Shown here in pieces: positions 1,905 through 28,600 of a stretch of DNA of 52,046 nucleotides. Origin of the DNA: Azolla caroliniana (taxonomy: Eukaryota > Plantae > Polypodiophyta); the NCBI GenBank assembly GCA_043228905.1, contig JBHGNT010000212.1:1-52046 (forward strand). Reading direction: 5' to 3'. The translations under genes and the position numbers were made by a program. The notes under the pieces were generated by a model. That model made no database searches and had not been told where the DNA came from. It worked only from the letters and a program-made list of their open reading frames with translations. The stretch's first letter is position 1; every line of letters starts with the position of its first letter.

Positions 1905-2694
1905 TGTCGTGAAGAAAACCGTCCATAGGCGGAATCGGCGCACCAAGGCGTGGAACCGGTTCTTCACGCGCGCACGCTCCAAGTAGTACATAGAAGCGAA
2001 TTAGGAGGATAATCGGCAGGAACGGGCCCTAACTCAAGTGGAGACAAAGACCGCGCGAACAGTCTTTTCGGTCGCGCGCGCGAACTGTACGAGTCGGCGG
2101 CGTAACTACGCGGATGCGTGGAAAAACGGAGCGGATCCCTGTCCAAAAGGGACAGGGAATAAAGCTGACAGGACGGCCTGCTCGTCGGCCTATATAAGGA
2201 GCGGGAAAGAGCTGTTGCAGAGATATCTCGCGCAGAGAGGACGAAGTGCTGCCGGACCGTTTCTGGACGCTTCGCTCTCTGTTTCCTTCCTTCTTGAGCT
2301 CCATAGCTTTCCGTGCAGGGTTCCGAGGAGGCTCGCGCTGTTTTCGAGGAACGCCCGAGTGCTTCCGGCAGCACCTCCGACCAGCTACAGCCCTTTGAGC
2401 GTCGAAGTGAACAGGCATCGGCATCTGTTCGCCGGCCTGTTCGGTCGTAACCAACCTGTGCCCCGTCGAGGGTTGTAGTCGTGTTAGCCGTTTTTCTTAA
2501 TATACACATTTAGCCATTCGCATCTGTCTGTGTCGGTTTCTGTTCGTGTTCTCCGTGCTGAAGGGCCGTGTCCCTGTGTACCCCCGGTCCTGCGTAGCCG
2601 GTTCTCTCTCTTTCCCCCTCCCTCGCTTGCTCTTTGGTTCGAGACCCCCGCGGTCCCGCCTCGATTCCACACGCACTTGCATAATATCCCGACA
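1905..2694 (+). repeat. 5' LTR of family B (790 bp)
   Basis: TGTCG...CCGACA termini; TATATAA at 2191; duplicated at 8413-9203. Confidence 0.97.
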
Positions 2695-2697
2695 TCT

Positions 2698-2715
2698 TGG
2701 TGAACCCGACGTGAA
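2698..2715 (+). promoter_or_regulatory. Primer-binding site complementary to the 3' end of tRNA-Trp
   Basis: TGGTGAACCCGACGTGAA is the 18-nt complement of the plant cytosolic tRNA-Trp 3' end as I recall it (...UUCACGUCGGGUUCACCA). It starts 3 nt after the LTR. Confidence 0.85.
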
Positions 2716-2737
2716 AGAGGCGGCAGAAGAGCAGAAG

Positions 2738-4519
2738 ATGAGGGGGTCGGATCTCGCAGAGGCCATGGCTTCGGCCGTGGATCGGATTGTAAACGCGCGC
2801 GAGAGCACCGGTGCCCTCGACAGAGCTATTGAGGCGGTCGTCGGTACGATCGGCCGGTTCGATGGGAAGGATGCCACGAAGTATTTGGCGTCCTACGGTG
2901 CAGAGATGCTGATACGGGACATTCCGGAAGGAAGGCGTCTTGCCGGATTTCCCCGAGTGGCGATGCCGAGCATCCATGCGGAGGTGCTCGAGGTGCGGGC
3001 GGAGAGCCGTACCTGGGAGGAGTTCGAAGGTCGGCTCCTAGAGAAATACGGGCTGGACGACGTGCTCCGGCTTTCGAAGCGAAGGTTCATGGAATGGGTG
3101 GAGTCCCCGGGGAAGGGAAGAAACGCGTCGGCACTCCTCCGGGAGTTCGAGGAAAACTTTGCGCGCCTTTCGGCGCTCGACCGAACCATCCTGGACACGA
3201 GCCGGGTCTTGCTGTTTGTCAAGTCGGTCGACGAGCGGGATCGGGAGCAAGTGGGCCTCTTGCTGGAAACCGAAGACGGGCTCACTACCGACTGGGCGGC
3301 TGTCAAGAAGGTCTGTGGCCGTTTCGACAAACGGCGAGAATGGGCGGATAACGGGGTAACCGGGTCGGGCTCGGTCGCAGCAAGGAAGTTCGAACCAGCG
3401 CCACAGGTGCGAAAGGAAGAGACCCGAGAGTGGTTGGAAACCGGTTCGGCTTCGACCGGCGTAGTCAGAGGCTCAACCGGAGGAGCGGCGCTGGAGGAAT
3501 TGACGAGGGCGGTAAAGGACCTCCAAATCGCGCAAGCCCGAAGGGAAGGTGGCGAACCGGCTCGTGACCGACGGCCGGCGGCAGGAAACAGGTGCATGTG
3601 GTGCGATGAAGTCGGCCACATTCGGAAGGACTGCGGCGACTTCGCGGAGGCGCTGAGGGACAGGGTGGTGTACCTGTGGGAAGGACGGGTGCATGCCAGC
3701 GACACCCGAAGGGCCCTGAGCCGAAACGACGGAAAAGGTGGTATGAAAAGGTTGATGGAAGAGGCGGCGGCCCGACACGCGGAAACCGTCCACTACTCGG
3801 CGTCGGCCGGCATTCGAGTCGGGGGCGGCGAGGCCCGAAGGGAAAGCAAAGCCGGATTCTGGCCGACGATGCTGGAAGGCCTTGCCGGTGCAAGGCTTAA
3901 AGGGGAGGAATCGGACCGTGCGGAGAAACGGGTACGGGAGATGACCGGGTGGAGCGACCCGGTCGAGGAACGGACGGGCTTCGTGGAAGCCGCTTGCCAG
4001 AACTACGAGGCTCTGGTAGAAGAGAAGCGGGTGGGGAAACCCGGGACGACCGGGCCCTCACAACGATACGAGACCCGGTCCGGGCCACGACGGGACGAAT
4101 CCGGCGGGGCCGGCACGCAAGATAAACCCCAGAAGGGCGGGTACCGTCTGGGGACGGAGATAGAAAGGACCACGGACTTACGGAAGGTCCTGGAGGAACG
4201 GATCCTCGACAGCAAGGTGGAGCTGTCGTTACGAGAGGTGCTGGGAATCGCCAAGAAGGAGTTCCACGACTCCATCGTGGACTTGGTGAAACGGAAGAGG
4301 CTGTCGACGGAGACAACCGGAAAGACCGGTGGAAGTGCGGACGACGCACCTAGACGACATGGCGCTGGGAGACGAGTGGGCGGAAAGCCACTATTCGAGG
4401 CCACACTGGGCCCGAGCGACCACGGAAACCCCGGTGAAGATCGGCGATGTCCAGGAACCGGTGACAGCTTTGGTGGACCACGGATCGGAGATCAATTTGA
4501 TGTCCATGGACTTCTATAA
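2738..4519 (+). CDS. gag: Gag of family B (homology probably ends near 4310, where the frame changes to protease)
   Basis: First ATG after the PBS. FDGKDA retrotransposon-gag-like motif and CCHC knuckle CMWCDEVGHIRKDC. Confidence 0.85.
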   Translation: MRGSDLAEAMASAVDRIVNARESTGALDRAIEAVVGTIGRFDGKDATKYLASYGAEMLIRDIPEGRRLAGFPRVAMPSIHAEVLEVRAESRTWEEFEGRLLEKYGLDDVLRLSKRRFMEWVESPGKGRNASALLREFEENFARLSALDRTILDTSRVLLFVKSVDERDREQVGLLLETEDGLTTDWAAVKKVCGRFDKRREWADNGVTGSGSVAARKFEPAPQVRKEETREWLETGSASTGVVRGSTGGAALEELTRAVKDLQIAQARREGGEPARDRRPAAGNRCMWCDEVGHIRKDCGDFAEALRDRVVYLWEGRVHASDTRRALSRNDGKGGMKRLMEEAAARHAETVHYSASAGIRVGGGEARRESKAGFWPTMLEGLAGARLKGEESDRAEKRVREMTGWSDPVEERTGFVEAACQNYEALVEEKRVGKPGTTGPSQRYETRSGPRRDESGGAGTQDKPQKGGYRLGTEIERTTDLRKVLEERILDSKVELSLREVLGIAKKEFHDSIVDLVKRKRLSTETTGKTGGSADDAPRRHGAGRRVGGKPLFEATLGPSDHGNPGEDRRCPGTGDSFGGPRIGDQFDVHGLL

Positions 4520-4862
4520 GAAGGGCAAATGGCCGATCAACACCAAGCACGGGTGGAAAATAAGGGCAGCAACGCGCGCCACCGAGGAACTGCACGGGGC
4601 CTGTCCGAATGTGCGAGTCAAGATTGGCGACGTCGAGATTGACCAGCACTTCTTCGTGCAGGAGACGTCTTCGCATCCGGTCATTCTGGGAGAGCCGTAC
4701 ATCACGGCGGCGCGAATGGAGACCAAAGTGCTGGACAATGGTTCGGCCTACGCGAGAGTCAAAAGCCAAGACGGGCGCCATTCGGTCCAGTTTCTGACGG
4801 TAAGGCCGAACCACGAACGTAACCGCGATTCCCTCGGTTCCGAAACCCGAGAGGATTTTTAG
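4290..4862 (+). CDS. Retropepsin-like aspartic protease (atypical DHG triad), in the +1 frame relative to gag
   Basis: ALVDHGSEIN and VILGEPY motifs. Frame is open from 4290 to the TAG at 4860-4862. Confidence 0.85.
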   Translation, partial: NGRGCRRRQPERPVEVRTTHLDDMALGDEWAESHYSRPHWARATTETPVKIGDVQEPVTALVDHGSEINLMSMDFYKKGKWPINTKHGWKIRAATRATEELHGACPNVRVKIGDVEIDQHFFVQETSSHPVILGEPYITAARMETKVLDNGSAYARVKSQDGRHSVQFLTVRPNHERNRDSLGSETREDF

Positions 4863-7800
4863 AGAGGACTGCCAAGGCGTGGGGCCGCGACAGTCCGGAT
4901 GCTCCGGGAAAACCCCACATCTGTACGATAAAACCGTGTACAATAGGTAGGAAATTTTGCTTCTCCGACAGCGGAGCATGTACGATGGTCGGCATCACCG
5001 GCCGAGAGAAAACAAAGACGGAGGGGAGACTTCGGGCGTGCGGAGTTCTCGGCTCTGACGAAGGAATCAACGGAGCCGTGGAGGCAGTCTCTTTCGACGA
5101 CACCTTGGGAATGCTGGGGAAGGTAGTCGAAGAAGACCTTAACGAAGACCGGACGATACCGGTATGTTCCGAAGAAATGTACGAAGTCATCGCGGACTTC
5201 GGTCGAGGGCTCGAGTCGGAACGGACGGCCCGGGTGAGCACCAAGTACAAGACAGTGGACCGGAAGGTGAGGCCAGTTGCGGCGCCCTTACCGGAGGGCA
5301 GTGAATTCCGGATTAAAGGGGTTGCATCGGACCCCAGCTTACGAGATCGGGCCTGCATAGGACACACCTTCACCAACGAGACGCTCCGCGAGCTGAAGAT
5401 CGGTGGGGGCGGGTTCCTACTGCCGGCGGAGGAAGACCGGTTCCGGAGAATGCTCGGAAGGCACGGGAAAGCCTTCGCATTCTCGCCGGAGGAAATCGGG
5501 TGCGTGGACCCGACGATCGTAGAGCCGATGGTGATATTCACGGTACCGCATGTACCGTGGAATCTCAAGCCAATTTCGGTTCCGAGAGCTCACATCCCGA
5601 AGTTGATGGAGCTGTTGAAGCAGAAAGTTGATATGGGCATTCTCGAGCCGTCGAGCGCCCCGTATTCAAACCGCTGGTTTACCGTACCAAAGAAAAACGG
5701 ATCATTGCGCTTCATTCAGGACCTGCAGTCGGTCAATAGAGTGACCATTCGGAACGCGGGGATCGGACCGACCATAGACGAGTTCGCGGAGGCCTTCGCC
5801 GGAAGGTCGATTTACTCGGTCGGTGATCTATACTCAGGGTATGACCAGTTCCAGCTAGCCGTGGAGAGCAGAGACATTACGACGATGCGAACTCCCCTCG
5901 GCCTAGTGCGGATGTGTACGCTGCCGCAAGGAGGGACCAACTCGGTGGCCCACATGGTGAATGCGATGAACAAGGTGCTGAGGGACTGCATCCCGAACAT
6001 CACCATGCCGTTTCTAGACGACATCCCAATCAAGGGATGCCCGGTAGAAGAGAAGGACGAGACGATCGGGCCGGACGGATGCCGGCGATTCGTGACGGCG
6101 CACATCGACGACTGCGAGAAGGTGCTGCAAAGGCTAGAGGAGGCGAGGCTCACCTTCTCGGGGGAGAAATCAGCCTTCGGGCAGTCGGAAATCATGGTGG
6201 TCGGACACTTATGTGGGCCATATGGCCGGAAACCGTCTCCGGCAAAGGTAGAAGCCATCTCCGCGATGAAGCCCGACTGCAGCTCGGTCACGGAAGTGCG
6301 AAGATTCCTGGGGGCATGCGCATTCTACCACATATGGATCCCGCATTACGCCCACGTTGCGGAGCCGCTATACGGATTACTGAGGAAAGGGCGAAGATTC
6401 GAATGGCTAGACAAGCACACGGAGTCGGTCCGGAAGCTGAAGGAGGCTCTTTCGGCAGCACCGGCGCTCCGAAAGGCCGTCTACAGGAAGGGCACCCCAG
6501 TGTACATAACGGTTGACACGAGTCCGACCGGAATCGGGTGGGTCGTCAACCAAGAAGACGAGGACGGCAATCGGTTCTCGATCCGATTCGGTGCGAAGGT
6601 CCTCAGCGAACGGCAGCGAGGATACGCCCAGGTTAAACGCGAACTCTAGGGTATCGTTTCGGCGGTGAAGGCCGACAAGGACTATCTGATCGGGACGGAG
6701 GTAATCATAGAGACGGATTGCATGCCGATTCTCGGCATGATTTCCGGATGCGCGACGCCGGACCTGGCAATGCTCAGGTGGATAGCGTATATCAAGTCCC
6801 TAGACCCGGTAATACGACACATTTCCGGGAAAGACAACGCCATGGCCGACATGCTTTCAAGGGCGAGATTCGATGACGAGGGCGGCATGGTTTCGGAGGA
6901 CGAAGACGTCGGCGTGGACTTCTTCGAGACTGCGTATGTAACAACAGACGGAACAAGCACTCCGGCGCTTAACGACTTCGACGCGAGCAAGTACGACGGG
7001 GAGTGGCTGCAGATCGGTGGGTTTCTGAAGACAATGACGCCCGATGCGTCATGGACGAAGGACGAGGCCGACCGGATCCGGAAGAAAGCGTACCGGTTCT
7101 TTCTCCGGGATAGCTGTCTATGGAAGCACCCGAAGAAGAAGGACGGCGTTCCGCTCCGGGTGGTGGCGATGAAGGAAGAACAGGAGGAGCTGCTGACGGC
7201 CTACCACGACAGCCCTTGGGCTGGACACCGTGGAACATGGGCTACGTTTGAGAAACTGAAGGGGAAGTATTGGTGGCCGGGGCAGTACCAGGACGTGCAT
7301 CGGTTCGTGACAACTTGCGAGAGCTGTCAGATGCACTCCACAGTCCGACATTGGGACGAGCTTCACCCCACGTACCCTCCGACCATCCACTTCAAATGGA
7401 TGGTAGATCTGGTGACGATGCCAATGGGAGTAGGACAGATGCGGTACCTGGTCCTAGCGCGGGAGGATCTGACGAACCAGGTGGAAGGCCGGGCCCTTCC
7501 GAACAAAACAACCGCGGCCGTATGCCGGTTCCTAGTCGAGGACGTGATATGCCGGTATGGGTGCGTCGGAAAGATCGTGGCTGACCGAGGGGAGTTGGAC
7601 GCCGAAGAAGCCGCGGAGCTGTTCGACCGGCTGGGAGTCAAGCTCTCGCTCACCACTGCGTACAATCCGGAGGCGAATGGAAAGGTGGAGCGCGGACACG
7701 GACCGATCGTCAAGGCGTTGGTTCGGGCATGCAGAGGCCGAGTCGGTAACTGGCCGCGGCTGCTACCTTATGCTTTGTGGGCGGACCGGACCACGCACAG

Positions 7801-8341
7801 TTCGGTAACCGGGTACATGCCGACGGAGCTCATGTTCGGCCAGAAGCCGATCATGCCGATGGAACGGACGATCTCCTCGTGGGCAACGGTCGACTGGAGG
7901 GACGAGATGAGCCGGGAGGAGTTGTTGGCCGCGCGCATACGACAGCTCGAGCGGAGACCGGAGGACGTGGAACTGGCTGCGGAGAAGCTCCGAGTGGCGA
8001 GGAGAAAGAACAAAGCCAGGTTCGACCGAACGCACCGGCTCCGACCGAAGAAAATCGAAGAAGGTGACTGGGTGCTCGTCTACGATAGCAGCCTCGACAA
8101 CCAGCACCGAGCTACACGGAAGTTCGCACGAAGGTGGTTCGGGCCTTACGTGGTACGGAGCGCCAATGACAACGGGACATACCACCTGGCGGAACTCGAC
8201 GGCACGAGAATGACGATACCGGTTGCAGGGAAACGGATCAAAGCGTTCAAGAAGCGACACGACGACGAGCCAGACCCGGCTCTCCTGGTCGGCAGTGACG
8301 AACGATCCGAAAACGAGGAAGAACCGACGGGCGAGGAATGA
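4823..8341 (+). CDS. pol: Pol (RT-RNase H-integrase) with one in-frame TAG at 6647-6649
   Basis: RT: VPKKNG, PQG, FLDD. RH: DTS...REL*GI...ETD...ADMLSR. INT: HHCC, D-D-E and GPY. ORFs 4985-6649 and 6665-8341 share a frame that is open from 4823. Confidence 0.92.
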
Positions 8342-8412
8342 AGACGGGCCGGTTTTCTCCGTCCCAACTCTCTTGGCGCATACCGGAGGATGCGCGGTTA
8401 GGTGGGGGCGGA

Positions 8413-9203
8413 TGTCGTGAAGAAAACCGTCCATAGGCGGAATCGGCGCACCAAGGCGTGGGAACCGGTTCTTCACGCGCGCACGCTCCAAGTAGTACAT
8501 AGAAGCGAATTAGGAGGATAATCGGCAGGAACGGGCCCTAACTCAAGTGGAGACAAAGACCGCGCGAACAGTCTTTTCGGTCGCGCGCGCGAACTGTACG
8601 AGTCGGCGGCGTAACTACGCGGATGCGTGGAAAAACGGAGCGGATCCCTGTCCAAAAGGGACAGGGAATAAAGCTGACAGGACGGCCTGCTCGTCGGCCT
8701 ATATAAGGAGCGGGAAAGAGCTGTTGCAGAGATATCTCGCGCAGAGAGGACGAAGTGCTGCCGGACCGTTTCTGGACGCTTCGCTCTCTGTTTCCTTCCT
8801 TCTTGAGCTCCATAGCTTTCCGTGCAGGGTTCCGAGGAGGCTCGCGCTGTTTTCGAGGAACGCCCGAGTGCTTCCGGCAGCACCTCCGACCAGCTACAGC
8901 CCTTTGAGCGTCGAAGTGAACAGGCATCGGCATCTGTTCGCCGGCCTGTTCGGTCGTAACCAACCTGTGCCCCGTCGAGGGTTGTAGTCGTGTTAGCCGT
9001 TTTTCTTAATATACACATTTAGCCATTCGCATCTGTCTGTGTCGGTGTCTGTTCGTGTTCTCCGTGCTGAAGGGCCGTGTCCCTGTGTACCCCCGGTCCT
9101 GCGTAGCCGGTTCTCTCTCTTTCCCCCTCCCTCGCTTGCTCTTTGGTTCGAGACCCCCGCGGTCCCGCCTCGATTCCACACGCACTTGCATAATATCCCG
9201 ACA
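8413..9203 (+). repeat. 3' LTR of family B (791 bp)
   Basis: Near-identical to 1905-2694; preceded by the PPT. Confidence 0.97.
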
Positions 9204-9627
9204 ACGTGTATACATATTTGATCGTATATATGTGATAAGTAAACATACATGTATATTTGATATTACGTGCTTTCTATCGAATGTTTTCCTTGTCGGGAAA
9301 AGGATCTTGGTGGCTGTCCTCACATTTTTGTGAGAATGGCGTTTTCACCATCCCTTTTTCAACAATTTTTTGTTGACATCCCCGTTGGTCACTTTGATAT
9401 TTCGTTACGTAATGAAACAATCATAGACACAATGGTGTTGAGTACGTAGGGTTTAACCCACTTCATGTGAGGTCGCTCCTATGACACACATATCCACCAT
9501 CCCTCCCTCATTACATGGATATGATGCCACCATGAGATCATTCTTACAAAAGGCATTCGTAATAACGTAACCATGTGATGGGCCACGTGGGCCTATTACG
9601 AAAAGAGGCCTCATTTGGCTTGACCAT

Positions 9628-10723
9628 TGTGAAAGTGTTTTTAGAATTCAAGGTATTGAAGTCTATAAGAATATAAGGTATGGTGCGTTCACATCCGGAA
9701 GGCAAGATCACGAGCTAAGGTCTTGAGGATAAGTCAAACAAAAAGCAAGTCACGTGGAGAAAAGTAAAAGAAGAAAAAAGCGGGCACCAAAATGCAGTCT
9801 ACAACGAACACTCATAACTCATTCGTTTGGACGCCAAATATAATGTGTAAATATGGATTAGAAAGCTTATGACGAGAGCTATCCGTAGCTTTTTAAAACT
9901 CTAAATTTGGAGCATGGATGAGGGAGATATGACGATTAGAAGATCATTGTGTCATAGCTAAGAATAGGAGATGGAAAAGCTGTAAAAAAAGCGTGGAAAA
10001 GAAAGCAAGCGAAACTTATCTACTAGAGGAGAACTTCATATAAAGCAAGAAGAGTGAGGTGGTGAGGAGGAGCCTTTTTCTGGTGGGGTTTTTCTTGCCT
10101 ATTCATGTAGTGCGTTTTTTCTAGTGATCAATTCATCCTTGTAGGCTTGAATTAATAAGGAGTGATGATCATAGAAACAAGAGAAAGAAGATACATAAAC
10201 TCAAGCCTACAAGGATGAATTGATCACTAGAAAAAACGCACTACATGAATAGGCAAGAAAAACCCCACCAGAAAAAGGCTCCTCCTCACCACCTCACTCT
10301 TCTTGCTTTATATGAAGTTCTCCTCTAGTAGATAAGTTTCGCTTGCTTTCTTTTCCACGCTTTTTTTACAGCTTTTCCATCTCCTATTCTTAGCTATGAC
10401 ACAACGATCTTCTAATCGTCATATCTCCCTCATCCATGCTCCAAATTTAGAGCTTTAAAAACCTACGGATAGCTCTCTTCACAAACTTTCCAACCCATAT
10501 TTACACATTATATTTGGCTTCCAAACGAATGAGTTATGAGCGTTCGTTGTAGACTGCATTTTGGTGCCCGCTTTTTTCTTCTTTTACTTTTCTCCACGTG
10601 ACTTGCTTTTTGTTTGACTTATCCTCAAGACCTTAGCTCGTGATCTTGCCTTCCGGATGTGAACGCACCATACCTTATATTCTTGTAGACTTCAATACCT
10701 TGAATTCTAAAAACACTTTCACA
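9628..10723. repeat. Long inverted repeat (523-bp arms, 50-bp spacer) made of two tail-to-tail truncated LTRs
   Basis: 9628-10150 is the reverse complement of 10201-10723, with roughly ten mismatches seen. The spacer 10151-10200 matches LTR sequence 12832-12881. Confidence 0.93.
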
Positions 10724-13392
10724 TTTAGCCCTCCCCCTTGCTTTTTTGTGAACCATTTATGGTGAACCCTAAGCTACTAATAAAACTAAAGGTTCTCCTT
10801 CGCCTTATTCATGGCTATAGACAAAGAAGGAGAAGATAAATAGAAAAGAAACAAACTATGTGAGTAAAACCCCCGCTAGTCGATAGGAAAAACCTCACAC
10901 TTCTAAACACACACACATACACATTGACAATTGCCATCACCATCTTTCTCCTTGTCAACACAAAGAAAGAGGTTACAACAATTAGTATATCTTCATCAAC
11001 TTTCCAAACAGAAGTAGGTCTATGTGATACATAACTCTTGATAGAAGTAAGCATGTTAACATATGAATAAATCTTTCGAGCGAGCGAACCTTTTGTACAA
11101 ATACCTTCAAAGCTTCGAGACTTGTCAGAATTGTCATATTTTGAATTATGTCAATCTTTGCTTCATCAACATGACTTCCTTCTTGGCACACCACATTCTC
11201 CACATTACCTTGTTTTTTATGTATGACCATTTCATCTAGAATCTCATCTCGAAAAGGAAGCAAAAATAAATCTCGTTTGGTTGAATCATTCAAGGATTGG
11301 AAGTTGACGTCTTTCTCCTTTGGAACAACCACAATAAGTGAGACAAACTTCAAATTCTCCAACTTGATGTGGTGCTTGATGCCTTCTACTCTTATCTGTG
11401 AATACTCATTTATGAATAACTTTGTAAACTTAAAAAAGAGAGAAATAAACCTTAGATCCTCTCCTCCTTGGACATCGTTTGAAATCATCTTCTTTTTCCC
11501 CTTTAGGGTGATAATACTTTTCTCTTCAATGACTTCTTCTTCCTCCTTAGACACCATGTGGAATGATTTGTTTTCCCTATCCCACGAATATTCATCAATT
11601 GTTATGCTTTCCTCTTCTTGCTTCCCAATGTCGATAGATGATTCCTTCTCCTTTATACATTTGATTAGTTGTGGTGGATCCTTTGATGGTGATAAGTTAA
11701 TGATACTCCAATCATGCATTACAAGTAAATCTCTTGGCTCTTGGTCAAATTGTTGTTGAAGAGTTGATGCCCACATAACTTTGTTGCTACTCAATGCAAA
11801 TCCAAAACATAAATCATGCACGAACACCTTCATACACTGCAACTTGGCACTTACCAATGCTTCCTTACACGCATTGATCTCCAAAAGCCAATCTCCAGCT
11901 ATCACTTCTAGGTTACCTTCTTCATCTTGCAACTTCGTTGTGGGTACTTCACCATCAACAACTTCTTTTGTCATATCTTCCATTTCATCTTGCACATATT
12001 CATCATCAACCACCATATCACTTGTTGTATCAATAATGTCCTCAACATGATGTACATTGGAATCACCATCCATAACATCGCTTCTCATAACTATCTCCTT
12101 AGATTCGTCTTTCACATCATCATTCTTTATATCATGGTTGTCCTCATGAACTAGATGGGGTAACTCCACATTCATCACCTCTTCTTCATTGTCTCTAGAA
12201 TCACCTTCATAGACATCATTATAACTCCAAAAATTAGAATAATGATATGAGGGAACCTGTTGAATCGGACATTGCAAGTAGGCTGGTTGTTGGCTCATGA
12301 CCGATCCACAATTATTATAGCTTGGATTTATGGTATATGACGCCGATAATCCATATGCTTCACCGAATAACAACTTCTTCAATTGTTGATCATAACTTTG
12401 ACATACTCGAAGCAAATCATGGAAAGACCTTGGGTACTTCATATGCACTTCATATTGAAAATATGGATCTAGCCTTGCTTTGAATCTTTCCATCTTGAAG
12501 TATACATCTTCAACGCCTCCAACAAGTCCAATCCAAGTGGACCATATATCCAAAAACGTCTTCTCATACTCGAGGTAGCACATTGGTGAAACCATACGCA
12601 ATTGGAAAAGTTCTCTTCGTAGATCTGTCGCATCGCGAACTCCATATCTTGCCATTAGTTTGATGATGAATCGGTAGATCCAACCATCAATTAGTGGACA
12701 ACCGTTCCTCCCGTTATACAGAAAGGATCGACCCTCCCTGGAGCGCCAAAAATGAAAAGAGAGATATGATGATAGAAAAGAGAGAGAAGGAAGATATAGA
12801 AACCCAAATCTACAAAGATATATTAATAAGGAGTGATGATCATAGAAACAAGAGAAAGAAGATACATAAACTCAAGCCTACAAGGATGAATTGATCACTA
12901 GAAAAACACACTACATGAATAGGCAAGAAAAACCCCACAAGAAAAAAGCTCCCCTCACCACCTCACTCTTCTTGCTTTATATGAAGTTCTCCTCTAGTAG
13001 ATAAGTTTCGCTTGCTTTCTTTTCCACGCTTTTTTTACAGCTTTTCCATCTCCTATTCTTAGCTATGATACAACGATCTTCTAATCGTCATATCTCCCTC
13101 GTAGAAGCTCTAAATTTAGAGCTTTAAAAACCTATGGATAGCTCTCTTCACAAACTTTCCAATCCATATTTACACATTATATTTGGCTTCCAAACGAATG
13201 AGTTATGAGCGTTCGTTGTAGACTGCATTTTGGTGCCCGCTTTTTTCTTCTTTTACTTTTCTCCACGTGACTTGCTTTTTGTTTGACTTATCCTCAAGAC
13301 CTTAGCTCGTGATCTTGCCTTCCGGATGTGAACGCACCATACCTTATATTCTTGTAGACTTCAATACCTTGAATTCTAAAAACACTTTCACA
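10151..13392 (-). mobile_element. Non-autonomous Tat-like Gypsy derivative (gag plus pol remnants), related to 22695-29659
   Basis: 5' LTR 12753-13392 and truncated 3' LTR 10151-10723. PBS TGGCGCTCCAGGGAGGG (~12732-12748) and PPT (10724-10740) match those of the 22695-29659 element. Confidence 0.9.
10982..12655 (-). CDS. 557-aa Gag-like protein fused to an acidic linker and short RT/connection fragments
   Basis: N-terminus aligns with the gag at 28403-28843 (RELFQLRM..FKMERFK). C-terminus has GIKHHIKL, IVVVPK, KRDLFLLPFRDEILDE and VFVQKVR..ERFIHML, but no YxDD. Confidence 0.8.
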   Translation of the reverse strand: MARYGVRDATDLRRELFQLRMVSPMCYLEYEKTFLDIWSTWIGLVGGVEDVYFKMERFKARLDPYFQYEVHMKYPRSFHDLLRVCQSYDQQLKKLLFGEAYGLSASYTINPSYNNCGSVMSQQPAYLQCPIQQVPSYHYSNFWSYNDVYEGDSRDNEEEVMNVELPHLVHEDNHDIKNDDVKDESKEIVMRSDVMDGDSNVHHVEDIIDTTSDMVVDDEYVQDEMEDMTKEVVDGEVPTTKLQDEEGNLEVIAGDWLLEINACKEALVSAKLQCMKVFVHDLCFGFALSSNKVMWASTLQQQFDQEPRDLLVMHDWSIINLSPSKDPPQLIKCIKEKESSIDIGKQEEESITIDEYSWDRENKSFHMVSKEEEEVIEEKSIITLKGKKKMISNDVQGGEDLRFISLFFKFTKLFINEYSQIRVEGIKHHIKLENLKFVSLIVVVPKEKDVNFQSLNDSTKRDLFLLPFRDEILDEMVIHKKQGNVENVVCQEGSHVDEAKIDIIQNMTILTSLEALKVFVQKVRSLERFIHMLTCLLLSRVMYHIDLLLFGKLMKIY

Positions 13393-16288: not shown

Positions 16289-16962
16289 TGTTAGGAAATA
16301 GGTCCCTCTGGATGGGAAGTGAGAACCGGATGACGAGTACCCGGCAACGGAAGACCCGGTGAGAACCGGATGTGGCGTACTCGGCAATGGAAGACCCGGT
16401 GAGGACCGGATGTGGCGTACCCGACAATGGAAGACCCGGTGAGAACCGGGTGTTGCAGGCCCGGTGAGAACCTCTCATCAGATGGAAGGGACATATATGT
16501 AAATATGTTCTAGAGAGCCCATTGGGGCTATATTTGTAAATAGCCCGAAAGTCATATCAGTATAAATATGACCTACGGCAAAGACGAGGATGTAGAGTTA
16601 TTGGTGTAACTTCTGTAACTGTGTACAAAGAAGAGAGAGAGAGAGAGAGGAAGAGGTTGTTGCCTCTGTTGTAACCGCTTGGTGGCAAAGCGAGGGAGTA
16701 AGAGGTCGTTGCCTCTCTGCCCCATTTTTGTATTACTTTACATAGTGATATTTTGCAGTCTGAGGACTGTCGTAGTTTTTTCCCATAATTGGGTTTTTCC
16801 ACGTTAACATCTTGTGCACTCTCTTCTTTACTGTTTCGTGCGTAGATACATCTTCCCACATCCCTTATTTCTGTGATTGATCCAACGTCTCAGTTGTGGC
16901 CGAGCATAGCTTAGGGAACCGTATTCCTGTCAAATTGGTATCAGAGCGAAACGACACCGAAA

Positions 16963-19900
16963 ATGGACAAATTGTTGGGAGGCATGTTCAAGCTCACCGG
17001 CTCCAATTACTCAGTGTGGAAGTCGAAGATGAGGGACATGCTCGTGGTTAAAAATCTTTGGTTGCTGGTTCAGTTCGAGGACAAGAGACCGGACAAAATC
17101 GATGCCACGATATGGGAGGTGGTGCACATGAAGACAACGACGTACATACAGTGCTTTATCGACATGAGTCTATACAACAACTTCAATGAAGAGAGCAAGG
17201 CTCATGAGCTCTGGGAGAAGATTGACATTATGTTTCAGATAAAAAATGTTGTTAATCAGGTTTCGGTATTTCGGAAGCTAGTAAGACTCCGGTACCAAGA
17301 TGGCTCCAACATGGCGGAGCACATGAATGCCTTCCAGGGGCTGATCCACCAGGCAACATCATTGGAAGTACCTCTCGCCGATGAGGTACTAGCACTACTC
17401 CTGCTCGGTTCCCTCCCAGATAGCTGGGAGACGTTGGTTGTCACTTTGGGCAACGCTGGGCCGGAAGGAAAACGGTTATCCCTGGCAAGAGTGAAGTCGA
17501 GCTTGCTAGATGAGGAGGCACGTTGGAAAGACAAGGATACTGACGGGAACTGGTCGTTCTTTATGCGCAACGCTCGGCCACAATCGAGCTTAGAATGATA
17601 CATAGAAAACGGGAAATAAGATGCGACAGAAAGAAGAAGAAAATACACAGGAGGTTTACGTGGAAAACCCCAAACTAGGGGAAAAACCACGGCAGCCCAC
17701 AGGCTGCAAACTGTCACTATGTAAGAATGTACAAAACAGTGAGTTCACGGAGGCCACGACCTCGTGCTCACGATCTTCGCCACAGGCGGCGGTTACAACA
17801 GAGGCAGCGACCTCTTTTTCTCTCTCTCTCTCTTTGTACAACGTTGCGTACTCTCTCTTCTTCTTGCACCAACAAGAAGAATGACAACAACTCACTAAAG
17901 GTTTGCCCTAAGTCATATTTATACTAATATGACTTTTCGGCTATTTACAAATATAGCCTCGATGGGCTCTCAGAAACATATTTACGAATATGTCTCTTCC
18001 TCCGGTTCTCACCGGGTTTGCGTCATCCGGCTCTCCGTAGCCGGGTGCTCCTCATCCGGTTCTCACCGGGTCTGCGTCATCCGGCTCTCCGTAGCCGGGT
18101 GCTCCTCATCCGGTTCTCACCGGGCCTGCACCATCCGGCTCTCCGTAGCCGGGTACTCCTCATCCGGTTCATACTGGGCCTGCACCATCCGGCTCTCCGT
18201 AGCGGGGTACTCCTCTTCCGGTTTCGGCCGAGGCCTATCGGCCTCGGCCGAGCTCGTTCATCAGCACTGTTCTTCTCCCTTCCCATCCGGAGGGACCTGT
18301 CTCCCAACAAATACGAACTCCGACTCCAAAGCGCTCATTACCGAATCGGAACGCGGAAGACAAAGGAACCGTAGTCCCTAGAACCGGAAGAAGTCGGGGA
18401 CACGGTCAAAGTCAAGGGGGAAGCCTACCTGCTTCTATTGCGGCAAGCCGGGACACTTCCAGAAGAATTGTCGGCACTTCAGGAAAGACAAGGAAACCGA
18501 TGGTACCGATTTGAAGCGGACACCGGACCGGAACGGTAAAGACTAGAGGGGAACGGACCGGAAGGGAACGACGGCAATCACGGCAAGTGAAGAAGAGTTG
18601 ATGCTCATCACCGAGGAGAGTGAGCTAAACCTTGCCGGCGATGAGATGACCTGGGTGGTCGACTCCGGAGCGTCGTTCCACCTTACCCCGGACCGGAAAT
18701 GCTTCTCATCCTACTCAGCTGGTGATCACGGCTGTGTCCAGATGGGGAATGAAGGTACATGCCGAATTGTCGGCATAGGAGACATGTGGTTGACAACACC
18801 AACCGGATGCAAGCTGCTGCTGAAGGATGTCCGACACGTTCCGGAGGTTCGACTGAACCTGATATGAGCCGGTCAGCTAGATGATGAAGGCTACACGGGT
18901 AGCATCCAGAATGGTGTTATGAAGTTTAGCAAAGGGAGCCTGATTGTGGCTCGGGCCTGGAAGTCAACACGCTGTACTTGATGAATGCCCGGTTATGCCT
19001 GGAGGAAGTGAACGTGGCATCCGACACTGTCGATGAGCTGTGGCACAAAAGGCTGTGTCACATGAGCGAGAAGGGGATGAAGACGCTTGTAGACGAAAAC
19101 CTCATTCTAGTGAAGAACGTGCACTTGGAGAAGTGCACTGATTGTCTGGTAGGTAAACAAAACCGAACCTCCTTCTGATCGACGCCACCGATGAGACGTA
19201 ATGCACCACTGGAGTTGGTGCATACTGATGTATGTCAAGTGGACACGAAGTCACATGTCGGATCGCAGTACTTCGTGATGTTCATAGATGACCACAGCCG
19301 GAAGCTGTGGGCCACACCATTGAAGACGAAGGATCAGGTGCTATCCGTCTTCAAAGAGCTCCACGTGAGAGTGGAAAGAGAAACCGGCCGGAAGCTGAAG
19401 GCGGTTCGAGCAGATAACGGAGGTGAATACCGGGGGCAGTTCGAGGAATGCTGTTGCTCGAAGGGAATCTGGCTCGAATTTACAGTGCCGAAGACGCCGG
19501 AACTAAACGGGCTGGCCGAGAGGATGAACCGGACCATAATGGAGAGGGTCCGGAGTATGCTGGCGCATGCAAAATTACCCAAGACATTTTGGGCTGAGGT
19601 GCTGTCAACAGCGACGTATGTGATAAACAGATCACCCTCAGTGCCCTTGGATGGAGACACACCGCAAAAGGTGTGGACCGGTCAGGAAGTGTCCTACCAG
19701 CATCTGAAGGTGTTCGGGTGTCTCGCGTACGTGCATGTTGCTAAGGACCGGAGAGGAAAGTTGGATCCAAAGACCCGGCCATGCATATTCCTCGGATACG
19801 ACGATGAGGAGTTCGGCTACCGAGTGTGGGATCTGGTTGACAAGAACGCTTTCCGGAGCCGAGATATTATCTTCATGGTGGACAAGACTCTTGCCGACTG

Positions 19901-21757
19901 GGAGTCAGAGAAGAAGATAATGAACTCCGATGAGATTCGGACACACCCGGTTAAGAGCCGGTTGACACTCGAGGAACCAGCCGGTTACGGTGAGGATACC
20001 AAACTGGCAGAAGAAGAAGTAGAGGAAGTTGAAATCAGAACCGGCCAAGAGCCCGAATCGGATTCAGATGAAGATCAAATAGTGGAGCCGGTTGCCGAAG
20101 GCCAAAGACGGAAATATCCTCTCAGGGAGAGAAGGACCCCCGGAGATTTCCGGATGCAGAGCATGTGCTACTGACCGATGAGGGAGAGCTGGAAAGCTTT
20201 GAAGAAGCAAAGGATGACACCCACAACCGCAAATGGTTAAGTGCCATGCAGGATGAGATGGATTGCCTGCATGAGAACCATTCATACGAATTGGTGGAGT
20301 TGCCGAAAGAAAAATGGGCACTCCGAAATAAGTGGGTGTACATGTTGAAACCGGGAGATGCCGGCAACCCCCCAAGATACAAAGCCATGATCGTGGTGAA
20401 GGGGTTCCAGCAGAAGAAGGGCGTGGACTTCGACGAGATATTTGCCCCGGTAGTAAAGATGAACTTCATCCGGACGGTGTTGAGTATAGCGGCAAACATG
20501 GACCTTGAGGTAGAGTAGCTGGACGTGAAGACGACATTCCTTCATGGTGACCTCGAAGAGGAGATCTACATGCAGCAACCGGAAGGATTCGTGGAGAAAG
20601 GGAAGGAGCACCTGGTTTGCCAGTTGAAGAAGAGCCTGTACGGACTGAAGCAGGCTCCCCGACAATGGTACCGAAAGTTCGACTCCTTCATGACCGATCA
20701 AGGGTACCACAAGATGCAGGCCGATCACTGCGTATTCGTGAAGAAGTTCGAAGGAGGCAACTTCCTGATACTCCTTCTGTACGTGGACGACATGTTGATC
20801 GTCGGACGGGACCAAGCCAAAATACGGATGCTGAAGAAGGCTCTCAACCGAACTTTTGCAATGAAAGACTTGGGTCCAGCAAGACAGATGTTGGGGATGT
20901 ATATCATCTAGGACTGGCCAAAGAAGCAATTGTGGTTATCACAGGAGAAGTACGTGACAAAGGTGCTTCAGCGGTTCAACATGTCAGACGCGAAACCGGT
21001 CGGATCGACACTTCCGGCAAACTGCAGATTATCCGGTAAGCAAAGCCCGAAGACGAAAGTAGAGAAGGCGGATATGATGAAGGTGCCATATGCCTCTGCC
21101 GTCTGGAGCTGAATGTACGCAATGGTGTGTACTCGACCGGATATTGGATACGCTGTCGAAGTGGTGAGCCAGTTTATGAGCAATCCTGGCAAGGAGCACT
21201 GGAATGCGGTTAAATGAATACTCCGGTACTTGAAGGGCACTTCGAATATGTGTCTCCGATTAAGCTCCGGTAAACCTCAACTTGACGGTTTTACCAATTC
21301 GGACATGTCGGCTGATGTGGATACTAGCCGGTCTACATCCGAGTATGTAATGACATATGCAGGGGGAGCTGTTTCGTGGCAGTCGAGGCTGTAGAAGACG
21401 GTTGTGTTGTCAACCACGGAGGCGGAGTATATGGCGGCTGTGGAAACCGTCAAGGAAATATTATGGATGAAGGACTTCATCGGATAGCTCGGTATCCGGC
21501 AAGATGAATATCGGCTCTATTGCGACAGTCAAAGTGCCATCCACCTTGGTCAGAACGCAGCGTACCATTCCAGGACGAAGCATATCCAGCGTAGGTATCA
21601 CTGGATCCGGGAGCGCGTAGAAGATCGAGAGTTCGCGTTGACAAAGATCCACACGGCCGAGAATGGGTCAGATATGTTGACCAAAGTACTGATACCCGAC
21701 AAGCTGGATGCATGTCAGAAGCGGATCGAACTAGTAAGACATCCCATGCCGGAGTGA
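16963..21757 (+). pseudogene. Copia gag-pol pseudogene
   Basis: WVVDSGAS, LWHKRLCH, VHTDV, ADNGGEY and LLYVDDM motifs. Multiple stops and frameshifts. Closely similar to the intact ORF at 34566-38633. Confidence 0.93.
17541..18309 (-). mobile_element. Copia solo LTR inserted antisense into the gag of the 16289-22491 Copia
   Basis: Minus strand TGTTGGG...CCCGTCA; TSD GATAC/AATAC; host gag resumes after 18310; four 54-bp repeats at 18001-18216. Confidence 0.88.
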
Positions 21758-22491
21758 AGGTGGAGTTTGTTAGGAAATAGGTCCCTCCAGATGGGAAGTG
21801 AGAACCGGATGACGAGTACCCGGCAACGGAAGACTCGGTGAGAACTGGATGTGGAGTACCCGGCAACGGAAGACCTGGTGAGAACCGGATGTGGAGTACC
21901 CGGCAACGAAAGACCCGGTGAGAACCGGATGTGGCGTACCCGGCAACGGAAGACCCGGTGAGGACCGGATGTGGCGTACCCGGAAATGGAAGACCCGGTG
22001 AGAACCGGATGTTGCAGGCCCGGTGAGAATCTCTCATCGGATGGAAGGGACATATATGTAAATATGTTCCAGAGAGCCCACTGGGGCTATATTTGTAAAT
22101 AGCCCGAAAGTCATATCAGTATAAATATGACCTACGGCAAAGACGATGATGTAGAGTTATTGGTGTAACTTTTGTAACTGTGTACAAAGAAGAGAGAGAG
22201 AGAGAGAGGAAGAGGTCGTTGCCTCTGTTGTAACTGCTTGGTGGTGAAGCGAGGGAGCAAGAGGTCGTTGCCTCTGTGCCCCATTGTTGTATTACTTTAC
22301 ATAGTGATATTTTGTAGTCTGAGGACTGCTGTGGTTTTTTCCCATAATTGGGTTTTTCCACGTTAACATCTTGTGCACTCTCTTCTTTACTGTTTTGTGC
22401 GTAGATACATCTTCCCACATCCCTGTTTTCTGTGATTGATCCGACGTCTCGGTTGTGGCCGAGCATAGCTTAGGGAATCGTATTCCTGTCA

Positions 22492-22694
22492 GATAATGTC
22501 TCGGTTCAATTAACATATTTTGAACAACAACAACTTGATGAAATCTTAAATGATTTTCGTGATGTTTTTCCGAGTGAAATACCAGATGGGTTACCTCCTA
22601 AACGTAATATAGACCATCGTATAGATATTGTACCTGGCATTGCACCAATAAGTATACCTCATCGCTTAAGTCAATCCAAAGAGGATGAGGTATC
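22492..22694 (+). pseudogene. Old chromodomain Gypsy, PR-RT junction (piece 2 of 3)
   Basis: Encodes DVFPSEIPDGLPPKRNIDHRIDIVPG and is bounded by the TSD copies GATAA and GTATC. Confidence 0.85.
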
Positions 22695-25600
22695 TGATAG
22701 GGGTGTATAAGATAATAGATAGTTATACACTATATGAGGGCTTGACCAAACCGATTAGATGGAGTTGAAAATCATAATATATTATATAGCTCTAGGTAAT
22801 TATGATTAGAGAGTATAACTCAAGAAACTAAGAAAAAAGATAGAGAAAGCGAGCAAGAAATAAGAATGTTCTGATATTCCAACATCAAGAGAATACAAAG
22901 GAGACAAACTCCACATTGAACTAAAACCAAAGACCTTCCTCTTCTAAGACACTTCTTCCTAACACTCCTCATTCACTCTTTTCCTTTACTCTTCCCCCCC
23001 TTCTCACTAATATCACTTCTTCTTTTATAACCTTCCTCTTCTTATCCACGTTCATGCTATTTTTAGAAGCTTTTTATCTCCCTATTTTTAGTTATGACAC
23101 ATCGACCTTCTAATCGTCATATCTCCCTCATCCGATATCCAAATTAAGCGATTTAAAAAGCTATAGAAAGCTCTTTTTACAAGCTTTCTAATACATATTT
23201 AAACGTGATATTTGGATAAACAACGAGGGAGTTATGACCATTCTATTTTTACTGTTTTTTATAGTCTGCGTTTTCTCTTTTTACTTTTCTCTTGGTCTCG
23301 TACTTTTACTTTTGACTTCTTTCCTAAGGTCTTAGTTCGTGTTCTTATCCTCAAAAGGTGAATTATCTATACTTTATATTCTCCTAATGTTCAATGGCTT
23401 AGATTCTAAAAACACTTTCACATTTAGCCCTCCTCCTTGTTAGAGGTTAAGCCATTTATGGCGAAGCACTTATTGGCAGTACTTAACAAACAAAAGCTCT
23501 CTCGCCAATCTCTTGGCTATAGACAATGAGAGAGATATAATAAAAAGAAAATAAAAAGATGTGAGTAAAACCCCCGCTAATCGGTAGGAAAAACCTCACA
23601 TTCTCTACAAATAAAAAAGATAATCACTATTACCATCTTCCTCTTTGTTAATAGAGAGAAAGATGGGTCTACAATATGGACTATTAAGAAAATAATGTAT
23701 GGGGAAACAAGTCCACTTCTTGCTCCCATCCATCCGTATCAACAATATCATTAGTAACTTGGGGAATATAAGTAGGTCCCCGAGTTACATACTTTTTAAG
23801 GCGCCATCCGTTCACTCGATAAGAATGAAGTGCTCCATCCACATCTTTCAATTGGTAACTTCCGTTGTCATACTTTTTGTGAACCACAAAGGGTCCTTCC
23901 CACTTATTATCAAGCTTTTGTCCTTGAATATAATCATATCTATTATCATACCTAAGAACCAATGATCCTTCTTCAATGTGGTTGCCCTTGTGTTTTTTGT
24001 CATATGCCTCCTTTCTCTTCATTGCTTGATTTAAGTAATGCTCCACAGCTTCTTCTCTTGAATATTGTAGTAGATGGTTGCTCGCTAAACGACTCATCAC
24101 ATCATTTCCTTTTGAGCGATGCGATGCCTCCATTAGTCTATTACTTTTGATCTCAAGTTCGATCGGAAGTAACGCTTCTTTTCCATAAACCAAATAAAAA
24201 GGAGTAAAACCTGTGGAGGATTTATAAGAAACTCTATAAGCCCAAAGAGTATCATCCAAATACCTATCCCATGTTCTTACTTTGTCTTGCACTAACTTTG
24301 TCAAATTCTTCACTATAAGCCCATTCACTTTCTCAACTGCACCATTTGCTTGAGGATAATAAGGCGTTGAATATCGATGCTTAATCTTCAACTTGCTTAA
24401 TAGACAAGCTAACATTTCACTCCTAAAACCGGGTCCATGATCGGATACAATCTCCATGGGAACTCCAAATCTCGTACAAATATTCTTATACACAAATTGG
24501 GCTACATCTTTGGCTTTAATCGAGGAAGTTGCTATAGCTTCCACCCACTTTGTCATGTAGTCAATGGCCACCAAAATAAACTCTTTACCATGTTGAGTTT
24601 TCGGAAGAGGTCCTACTGCATCAATTCCCCATTTCTCGAATGGAGCAAACACCACAATGGGTTGTAAAGGTCCACTTTGTAGATGTCTTATTCCCGCTTT
24701 TTGACATGCATCACAAGATCTACACCAATCATGCACATCCCTATGGATAGTAGGCCATGTAAAACCAATTAGTAAAATCTTTCTTATCATTATATCATGG
24801 GCTAAATGCCCACCACAAACTTCTTCATGCAACTTAAAGAGTATCTTTATAATCTCGCTTTTGTTAGGAACTCTTCGTAAAACTCCATCTTTCCCTTTGT
24901 TGTACAAATCTTCACCCACCAAATGATATTGTGAAGCCTTTGCCACCAAACGCTTTCTTTGCAAAGCATTGAGGTTATTTGGAAACTCTCCTTTATTAAG
25001 AAAATTATGTACTTCCTCTAGGGAGTCTACATCTTTGCACGTCTCCAAAACACCAACGAAACCTTCCTTGATCTTATCTAATTGGGCTTGAGCTAATGCA
25101 TCCGCTTCTTTATTGTATAATCTCCCCACATGCTTAACCTGTATCTTTTCAAAAGACCTTAGTAGACTCATTGCTTCTTTATAAAAATTTCTAAGCCCAT
25201 CACTTTGACATTTCCAATTGCCTTGAATTTGTTTAATTACCAATAAGGAATCACCCTTAAGAATTAATCTTTTTATCTTCATAGCTTTACATAGACGAAG
25301 ACCATAACACAAGGTAGCATACTCCGCTTCATTATTTGAATTCACACCACTTAATGTAATACCTTCACTTTTTACTCTGTCTCCTTGAGGATCCTTGAGA
25401 ATAATCCCACCCACGGCTATGTTTGTGGCTTTGCGAAATGCCCCATCAAAGAATAAGGTGAATGCATCCTCCATATCCGGCTCGGGAAGTGCCTTTCGTA
25501 GCTTTACCAAGTCTTCTTCATGAAAGGTTTCTCTAAAGGTGAGAAGATCCGCCAATTCGGCACGCATAGTTGATTCCAATTTGACTTCAAAATCAAACTC

Positions 25601-28600
25601 CGCCAATAGTAGAGCCCATTTAGCAATTCGTGCTGAAATGCTCACATGTTGGAGTACATATGGGAGTAATGACATGCTAGTGATTATTACAAAATGATGA
25701 GGTAGTAGAAAGCTTCTAAACTTTTTACAAGCATATATAAGAGCTAACATCCACTTTTCTACTTCTAAGAATTCTTTCTCTACATCAGACATGGCTTTAC
25801 TAATAAAATATATAGGATGCATAAGTCTATTTTCAGAATCTTGTTGCATAAGAATGGCTCCTATAGCATGAGATCCAACACTAAGAGAAAGAAAGAAGGT
25901 AGATGTTCTATCAGGTGGCTTTAGAATAGGAGCATTACATAATAGTTCTTTTATTCTTACATATTGCTCTTCAGTTGTAGATGTCCACAAGAAGTTGTTG
26001 GTGCGAAGAATAATGCGAAAAGGATAGAGAATTTGGGCCAACATATGAATGAATCGTTCAAAGTAACGAACTTTTTGAACAAATACCTCCAAATCTTTGA
26101 TACTCGTGGGTGTTGTCATCTTTTGAATTGCTTCAATCTTTGAGCTATCAACTTTGATTCCTTCTTGAGACACCACATGACCAAGCATCACCACCTCCTT
26201 TTCACCTATGTGACACTTCTCTGGGTTGAGTTGCATTTTGCATTCCTCCAATCTTTTGAATGCCAAGCGAACCTTTTCCAAATGGTCTTTCCTGCTACTA
26301 TAAATTGCAAAGTCATCCATAAAGACTCTAACAAACTTTCCAAAGAATGGTTGGAATACATGAATAGCAAGACGATTAAATGTAAAAACAGCATTTGTGA
26401 GTCCAAAGGGCATGCATCGATATGCAAAGCATCCCCATGGAGTGATGAATGTCGTCTTCTTTTGATCCTCTTCCGCAATACGAATTTGAAAATAACCTGA
26501 ATAGCCATCACAAACAGAGTACATTTCATGACCCGCAATTTCATCTAATATTTCATCTTGGAAAGGGAGAGGAAAGTGATCCCTCTTGGTAGCCGCATTT
26601 AGAGGTTTGTAATCAACACAAACCCTCCATTTTCCATTCTTTTTAGGTACCACCACAATGGGCGAAACCCATTCAGAATCTTCCACTGGGTAAATGAATT
26701 GTGCACGCAACAAAGCTTTGACTTCCTTTAATAAGGCCTCCTTTTGCACGTGACCTAGCCTTCGCAACTTTTGCGCAACGGGAGTTGTACCCTCCTTTAG
26801 ATTTATGTGATGTTGGATGACATCTACACCCCTAATATGAGCATAATCACTAATGAAAAGGTTAGGAAATTCAGAAATCAAATTAATAAATTGTTGCCTC
26901 TCTTGCCCTTTAAGATCTTTAGAAATCATCTTCTCTTTTTGCTCCATAGTAATTAAACCTCTTTCATCATCTTCTTCCTTCAAAACGGCATATGATGTGG
27001 TCATTTCCCATTCTGACGAGGAATCTTCACTTTCATCACTTTCATATGCGGACCCACTATCATATTCAGTTATTCCATCTTCTTCTTTCTCAATAAGTCT
27101 TTGTTGCCGCATATCATAATGTATGCTCACTCCTTTTGATGGCGTTATGGTCATCAAACCTTTGCTCCAATCTTGGACAACATTGAGTTCTTGCATCCAT
27201 GGTCGTCCTAGTACCAAAGAATATGACGGTCCTTTTAGTGGTATTACATGAAAATCCATGGAAATGCTTACCCCAAAACACTTGATGACAACATCCTCCA
27301 CTATGCCAATGCAATGGACCACTCCACCATCGGCTACAGCCACTCTTGCCGAAGATGACCTACTTATAGGAATTCCCACTTTGTTTACCACAAATTCAGA
27401 AATCAAGCTTACTCTAGCACCACTATCAACCAATGCATCTTTGATGTGAAACCCTTTGATGGAGACGGGGATGGTGGGTCGTATGTCCTTTCGATCTTCT
27501 ACTCGCACGATTCCCACATAATGCACAGTCTTCCGACTTTGGCGAATACTTGCAAGTCGCCCCCACTCCTTTCGTAATGTGGGAGATAATTGGAGAAGTT
27601 GCGGCCATGTTATCCTTGGTCCACTTGAAATCAACTCATGCTTCAAATTGAAAGCTTCTACACCTTCACCCATAGGAATGTCCTCCATCTTGATCTTTCT
27701 TCTAGAGTGTCTCCTTCTCAATTTTTCCTCTTTCTCATTCTCCTTAGACTTCTTCTTTTGTCTTGAGGCACTAGATTCTCCTTCAACTTCTTTCTCCTTT
27801 TGCGAGGACCTTGTCCTTTTCACAGGAGCTACTTCAAAAGAATTATCACTATCATCAATAAAATTAAGAAGATTCACATTATGAGGAATTGTAGGAACCT
27901 GAGCCATAGGGAGTGTTACGTTTCCTTCGACTTCATTGTTGTTAGGTCGTTGTCCATTCCTTTGCACTTGATAAATGCCTCTTCCCATGCCTCTTTGTTG
28001 TCGATGAGGACATCTTGTTGAGATGTGTCCCTCCTCTTGACAAGAATAACAAATTACACCGTGATGCCCTCTAGAGCCACCACCATTGGGAATAGTGTTG
28101 TGAATTGCTTGGGATTGTCGCAAGTGGGTCATCACTTCATCAAAGCGCCGATTTACCAATGCCATGGTATCTTGTTCACTCCTCACTTGTTCAACTTCTT
28201 GGGATATACTTGTTGGGTTTATTGTTGTGGTGGTATACACATTTGGAAACACTTGTCCCCCGTGCACAATTGAAGATGAGGCTTGAAAGTTGGCACGAGG
28301 CATCAAATTTGCACCCAAAGCCGTCATTTGGGGATCCCCCAAGGAGCTCATCATCTTCACTTGTCGATCATAAGCTTGACAAACTTGGATAAGAGCTTGA
28401 AACTATGTGGGATCCTTCAAGTTTGCTTCCAAACGGAAATACATATCAAGACCCATCTTGAATCGTTCCATTTTAAACCACTCGTCTTCAGTGCCGCCAC
28501 GAAGACGAATCCATGTAGTCCACAAATCCTTGAAATTTCTTTCATACTCAGTGAAACCAATTGGTGATTCCATCTTTAGTCGAAATAGCTCTTCCCTTAC

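Follow-up and report, generated by a model that had tools for sequence, protein, structure and literature searches.

Among recoding signals, those that shift ribosomes by -1 have been described for several plant RNA viruses, and the mechanism by which plant LTR retrotransposons make Gag in excess over Pol is poorly documented. A 2016 review lists G_GA as a recognised exception to the XXX rule for the first three slippery bases in dianthoviruses and umbraviruses, lists G_GAU_UUU for pea enation mosaic virus, and gives 5-9 nt as the typical spacer at -1 sites (PMC5009743). For plant elements, that review cites only +1-frame cases, as of 2003 (PMC5009743). In REXdb, the Ty3/gypsy lineage Phygy is marked by a 4-bp NCGN target duplication and a tRNA-Trp primer, and its 186 elements have their open reading frame (ORF) organisation entered as ND (PMC6317226). 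The REXdb lineage table has no lineage with overlapping frames at the junction of protease (PR) and reverse transcriptase (RT) (PMC6317226).

The window examined here is the whole stretch of 52,046 nt from Azolla caroliniana contig JBHGNT010000212.1. A full-length Ty3/gypsy LTR retrotransposon of 7299 bp occupies positions 1905-9203, and the features of this element given below lie on the forward (+) strand. The 5' LTR (1905..2694) has TG...CA ends and is directly preceded by ACGT (1901-1904), and the 3' LTR (8413..9203) is directly followed by ACGT (9204-9207), so that the target site duplication is ACGT on both sides, a 4-bp NCGN. The two LTRs are 99.75% identical over 791 columns. A purine-rich tract (8396..8412) adjoins the 3' LTR, and a 17-nt primer-binding site is located at 2698..2714, which is matched exactly in 34 of 80 related loci (the best 80 of 202). 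We presumptively assign this site to tRNA-Trp, which fits the Phygy entry of REXdb; ARAGORN, run on 60 of the 80 viral loci from the primer-binding-site scan, found no tRNA-Trp gene. The Gag-PR coding region extends from 2711 to 4862, with the protease D-H-G-S motif from 4476, and Pol (4823..8341), comprising a linker, RT, RNase H and integrase, is in the -1 frame. A Pfam scan of four frames of the element returned RT, RNase H and integrase in the gypsy order PR-RT-RH-INT, with protease and DUF4100 matches in Gag-PR that fall under the Pfam cut-off, and with no chromodomain or extra RNase H among the matches. Some protein relatives carry the names of Physcomitrium patens, Riccia or Adiantum, and the others derive from metagenome contigs, which makes a non-seed plant the most probable host. 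The P. patens protease relatives are approximately 59-71% identical; scans of viral contigs found no relatives. The NCGN duplication, the compact internal region and the P. patens protein kin, which are shared with Phygy of REXdb, and the presumptive tRNA-Trp primer-binding site fit a provisional assignment of the element as Phygy-type (PMC6317226). It differs from the REXdb description in that Phygy is there a clade specific to P. patens, whereas relatives found here also carry Riccia and Adiantum names, and in that the window copy is slightly under the listed length range of 7656-9968 bp (PMC6317226).

Other repeats are present in the same window. A second LTR pair (728 bp, 99.7%) bounds 22695-29659, with Pol matches on the minus strand at 23780-26653. 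Within 9628-13392, a near-palindrome of 1096 bp (9628-10723) overlaps a pair of direct repeats (10151-10723/12822-13392), which enclose a 629-codon frame on the minus strand. Two further elements with LTR-like boundaries, at 16319-22494 and 33908-39323, are 81% alike over 18318-22141/35150-38963, and show no match to the Pol of the 1905-9203 element.

An earlier reading of the window, made from the sequence alone, had proposed a -1 frameshift cassette between PR and RT. We found the heptamer GGATTTT (G_GAU_UUU) at 4853..4859 and the protease-frame ending GAG GAT TTT TAG exactly where they had been placed. The protease frame runs from 4290 to 4862, and the -1 frame, claimed to be open from 4823 into RT, is indeed open from there through RT, up to 6649. 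The heptamer is followed by a spacer of 6 nt as described, TAGAGA (4860..4865), which includes the Gag-PR stop TAG (4860-4862). The predicted stem 1 had been given as GGACTG (4866-4871) with CAGTCC (4891-4896); this pairing holds, but its extent was too short, as eight positions face each other between the 5' arm (4866..4873) and the 3' arm (4889..4896), with one C-A mismatch (4872/4890) in the window copy. Within the loop of stem 1, the predicted 5' arm of stem 2 (GTGGGG, 4879..4884) pairs with the 3' arm CCCCAC (4913..4918), which agrees with the H-type pseudoknot put forward. The extra hairpin CCGGA/TCCGG at 4895..4907 is present as well, but it is not separate from stem 1, since C4895-C4896 belong to both; without these two bases it has just 3 bp and -1.5 kcal/mol. 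It forms in the window family only among 19 cluster representatives, and most of the 19 members of that family retain some form of it. In the 75 nt after the heptamer, 9 of 1000 dinucleotide shuffles scored at least as high for a pseudoknot as the window copy. The nested minimum-energy fold, computed with a program unable to form pseudoknots, is unremarkable (z -0.71; 44 of 200 shuffles equally stable), and it ties up the CCCC of stem 2 in an alternative hairpin. The strong support for the cassette comes from its relatives and not from the window copy by itself.

The window copy bears two coding lesions. Compared with the 717-residue homologue P0123, its Gag-PR is 95-96% identical in two frames, with a switch near 4314-4315, and its Pol has an in-frame stop at 6647-6649, in RNase H. 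Because of the frame break near 4314, ribosomes translating Gag of this copy would terminate at 4517-4519, short of the slippery site. Where the upstream sequence is 2000 nt or longer, the Gag-PR frame is open in 34 of 46 sequences, and where 2500 nt or more lie downstream, the Pol frame is open in 31 of 34, the window copy being counted in both. The cassette of the window copy is intact in spite of the breaks upstream and in RNase H, and the proposed mechanism is a property of the family, not of this copy. The 99.75% identity of the LTRs together with the two lesions suggests that a defective copy inserted recently, or that the assembly contains errors.

For the comparison with relatives, we used the best 80 of 202 stretches confirmed in a metagenome scan as loci. 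These were reduced to 51 distinct cassettes, which form 19 clusters at 80% identity; since 77 of the 80 loci share names of the ERZ10343/ERZ10344 type and may represent one campaign, the independent units number about 19, the count of the clusters. The protease-frame stop could be located in 79 of the 80 loci, and 17 contigs lacking RT were set aside, leaving 62 with both PR and RT. Finding PR and RT in a single frame in sister copies had been named beforehand as the outcome that speaks against frameshifting; none of the 62 was continuous, and in 55 Pol overlapped in the -1 frame, which stayed open over the junction. Two others had Pol in a -2/+1 frame, also open across, and five were interrupted. 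The overlap in seven loci spans only -4 to +6 nt around the Asp codon, and this leaves the heptamer as the place of the shift. Among contig-called Pol homologues, 79 of 80 are without a protease motif; the exception, P0099, is a distant relative on one contig (1374 aa, 57% to the RT query), in which PR and RT share one ORF, and represents either a single-ORF branch or a chance indel. Purifying selection acts on the Pol frame of the linker between the knot and RT, as judged by a median dN/dS of 0.35 (below 1 in 129 of 133 pairs), and both other frames carry stops there in 58 of 58 sequences.

The slippery site was counted with anchoring on the stop and the residues Asp-Phe only; a tally obtained with a search pattern that requires G was discarded as circular. 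An Asp-Phe-stop ending was found in 65 of 79 loci (from the best 80 of 202), and all 65 carry G_GAU_UUY. The base before the Asp codon is G in all of them, contributed by 11 different codons, the Asp codon is always GAT, and the Phe codon is TTT in 62 and TTC in three; the background is 0.285 for third-base G and 117:62 for GAT:GAC. The stop itself varies (TAA 29, TAG 26, TGA 10). Elsewhere, an in-frame slippery motif occurs once in 9825 upstream codons, and in five of the 79 loci no such motif lies near the first stop. The variants G_GAU_UUC and G_GGU_UUU were also seen. Of 111 contig-called Gag-PR homologues, 102 terminate with D/G-F or with D/G-F and five further residues; a residue without a G-ending codon precedes this motif in 0 of the 102, as compared with 22-62 at six positions upstream. 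The remaining nine have other endings, two of them of the -2 type described below. This Gag-PR ending also occurs in gene models with Physcomitrium, Riccia and Adiantum names. The stop of L056, L072 and L079 is five codons further on, inside stem 1, with unchanged spacing to the stem; in this later-stop subgroup, which includes Physcomitrium and Adiantum gene models, endings such as xxVPL and xxMPL are observed. Two in-frame G_GAU_UUC lie 12 nt apart before the stop in L060, L062 and L063, and many relatives end in D-F-x-D-F, which may represent tandem slippery sites.

Conservation extends to the predicted pseudoknot. In an unfitted MAFFT alignment of the 51 cassettes, the nine pairs of stem 1 are paired in 88.7% of cells, with two-sided changes in seven of the nine pairs (37 cells), counts that relatedness inflates; at most 1 of 500 shuffles was as high on any measure, and pairing dropped to 24-46% when the arms were slid. 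In 34 of 51 the outermost pair does not form, and the core therefore consists of eight pairs; the closest sister families have stem 1 with eight paired positions. Since the 3' arm of stem 2 shifts position between families, this stem was tested without alignment. The stem 2 loop pairs with its own downstream region better than the cross-cluster mean in 18 of 19 clusters, and none of 100000 permutations reached the observed sum, in test windows picked after the data had been inspected; by base shuffle, several single clusters are non-significant (window family, p 0.18). The pairings differ among families, namely GUGGGG/CCCCAC, GCGAGA/UCUCGC, CAAGG/CCUUG and GCAGGGA/UCCUUGC. For 16 of the 19 cluster representatives the pseudoknot score was equalled by at most 1 of 200 shuffles, the exceptions being L033, L044 and L057. 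Averaged over columns, conservation amounts to 0.95 for the heptamer, to 0.74-0.79 for three of the stem arms and to 0.43-0.49 for loops and flanks, and the distance from heptamer to knot is 5-7 nt across relatives (6 nt to the stem 1 core in the window copy). In addition, a 903-nt contig of a diverged family, from run X19, matches the window at 4853-4926 only, that is, at the cassette. The sister copies thus retain the heptamer and the stop, and both stems show compensatory changes, as the sequence-only reading had suggested should be checked.

Taken together, the frame overlap, the invariant G_GAU_UUY, the covarying stems, the selection on the Pol frame and the lack of a conserved AUG or splice acceptor make it very likely that the conserved site, stop and predicted H-type pseudoknot at the Phygy-type PR/RT junction drive programmed -1 frameshifting. 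By analogy with established -1 frameshifting, a ribosome halted by the knot would have its P site on GAU and its A site on UUU, and would slip to GGA/UUU, evading the stop. The slipped minority would produce Gag-PR-RT-RNaseH-IN, with a junction peptide like E-D-F-L-E-R in the window family, and most ribosomes would release Gag-PR. The proposal that the element makes an excess of Gag-PR and a minority of Gag-PR-Pol is thereby supported for the family by overlap, site and stems, but it does not extend to the window copy, which is broken upstream. The choice of heptamer accords with what had been stated of dianthoviruses, for which G_GA heptamers are listed (PMC5009743).

One alternative is that splicing removes the stop and joins Pol to Gag-PR, in the manner of Ogre. 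Riccia and Physcomitrium gene models do fuse PR to RT (29 of 40 Riccia models, with junctions that vary between models), and several Physcomitrium models exit the PR frame at one place, right after K-D-F-G; these models, however, re-enter at varied places, like gene-finder introns that bridge a stop. Moreover, an invariant AG after the site is absent (best column 10 of 19), the PR tail has no donor consensus, the ORFs overlap, and the linker is under coding selection. Contigs from X16, X17 and X19, which are RNA runs or guessed to be so, span the junction unspliced with no joints listed, a weak argument since contigs lose rare forms and may be DNA; they give neither transcription level nor strand. 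We consider splicing quite unlikely. If frameshifting is correct, it would explain the inconsistent gene-finder introns in these elements.

A separate synthesis of Pol by reinitiation or an internal start, with the structure merely slowing or stopping ribosomes, might be suggested by the two -2-type families, both of which carry a Pol-frame AUG upstream of the Gag-PR stop. Across relatives, however, the first AUGs in the Pol frame are scattered from -68 to +443, so that none is conserved, and the phasing of an invariant G_GAU_UUY to the Gag-PR frame would be left unexplained; this makes separate synthesis very improbable. We regard as similarly improbable that polymerase or RT slips on the U run, or that the knot serves in packaging or dimerisation and has no bearing on the frame. 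Structured cis signals occur in retroelement RNAs, and most loci have five consecutive T at the site. The run is nevertheless shortened by G_GAU_UUC variants in 4 of 73 loci, no 1-nt indel at the site is listed in four DNA runs (with low-depth joints taken as noise), and tRNA re-pairing is consistent with the fixed spacing of 5-7 nt and with the conservation of the first G. Finally, decay of a dead copy, to which the two other lesions of the window copy might point, is refuted by the shared -1 frame (55/62) and the invariant site (65/65), the lesions being unshared (34/46 open Gag-PR, 31/34 open Pol) and the PR/RT shift common across the tree.

Besides the -1 elements, two families may have taken a different direction of slippage. 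In a midpoint-rooted RT tree of 36 rows, L052 and L065 form one clade (support 100/100; branch lengths of 0.098 and 0.11) that lies within the -1 elements. Their cassettes (L052, 2834-2905; L065, 2496-2567; proteins P0145, P0151, P0256 and P0257) have the site CAG GUU UUU GAC/UAC UAG, that is, AG_GUU_UUU, with Pol read in the -2/+1 frame; stops interrupt the -1 frame immediately ahead of the site and again 0 or 5 codons past it. A strong pseudoknot follows after a spacer of 5 nt, one base nearer. Full-length proteins show endings of the -2 type as well (among those listed, six from the P0145 cluster and two from that of P0151), and a protein search for the V-F-x-stop type found none besides P0145 and P0151. 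A 725-residue Gag-PR is paired with a 1103-residue Pol on a contig of matching length in L065, and Gag is broken upstream in L052. [quoted passage not shown] L052 and L065 are a candidate natural switch from -1 to -2 frameshifting, in two families; a +1 shift or reinitiation at the upstream AUG, instead of -2, is an alternative. We judge the odds to be slightly in favour of the wider reading, in which a lineage-wide, pseudoknot-stimulated -1 shift operates in moss, liverwort and fern Phygy-type elements and has been switched to -2 at AG_GUU_UUU in L052 and L065 via a knot one base closer. If so, these two families would illustrate in nature, and by means of an RNA structure, the spacer-length rule known from engineered HIV cassettes, and the -1 and -2 sister clades would offer a natural pair for how spacer length sets the direction of slippage.

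Rfam covariance models gave 0 matches to 4700-5050 at E values up to 10. A full-text literature search, which covered few subscription journals, found no description of this signal among the papers listed, and an earlier notice is possible; passages of PMC7466625, PMC12786077, PMC11963269 and PMC5014426 do not describe it. A possible link to yeast Ylt1 was dropped, as passages of PMC5014426 give nothing on the frame layout of that element. The lineage-wide recoding signal is of a known mechanistic kind, and the search brought up no description for this junction and plant lineage. The cassette of approximately 70 nt, with 51 distinct natural variants, is a directly testable plant -1 signal.

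Among known systems, a comparable layout is that of Ogre and Retand of the Tat lineage, in which GAG-PROT is split from RT-RH-INT after the protease (PMC6317226). Ogre has an intron as spacer and Retand a single stop (PMC6317226), whereas the frames of the Phygy-type elements overlap. The sequence-only reading had contrasted the layout with the usual single gag-pol ORF and with a shift before PR; a PR/RT split is known from Ogre and Retand, and the new part is the combination of a -1 overlap, a slippery site and a pseudoknot. With the -1 sites of dianthoviruses and umbraviruses, the cassette shares the type of heptamer, a stop close behind it and the use of plant ribosomes, and it differs in having a predicted local H-type pseudoknot in place of a stem-loop with long-range pairing (PMC5009743). 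The L052/L065 sites resemble that of nsp2TF of the arterivirus PRRSV in their RG_GUU_UUU-type sequence and, in L052 only, in a -1 frame that stops at once; PRRSV depends on nsp1-beta and on PCBP at a C-rich motif and has no RNA structure (PMC4937337), whereas L052 and L065 keep the pseudoknot, one base closer. The gag-pol junction of Rous sarcoma virus has a pseudoknot-stimulated -1 shift in common with the mechanism proposed here. That virus carries its protease within Gag and uses a tRNA-Trp primer, and its heptamer differs from G_GAU_UUU. It is a retrovirus with env, unlike the present element. The comparison with its layout stands as an analogy but not as kinship, and the likeness is best read as convergent.
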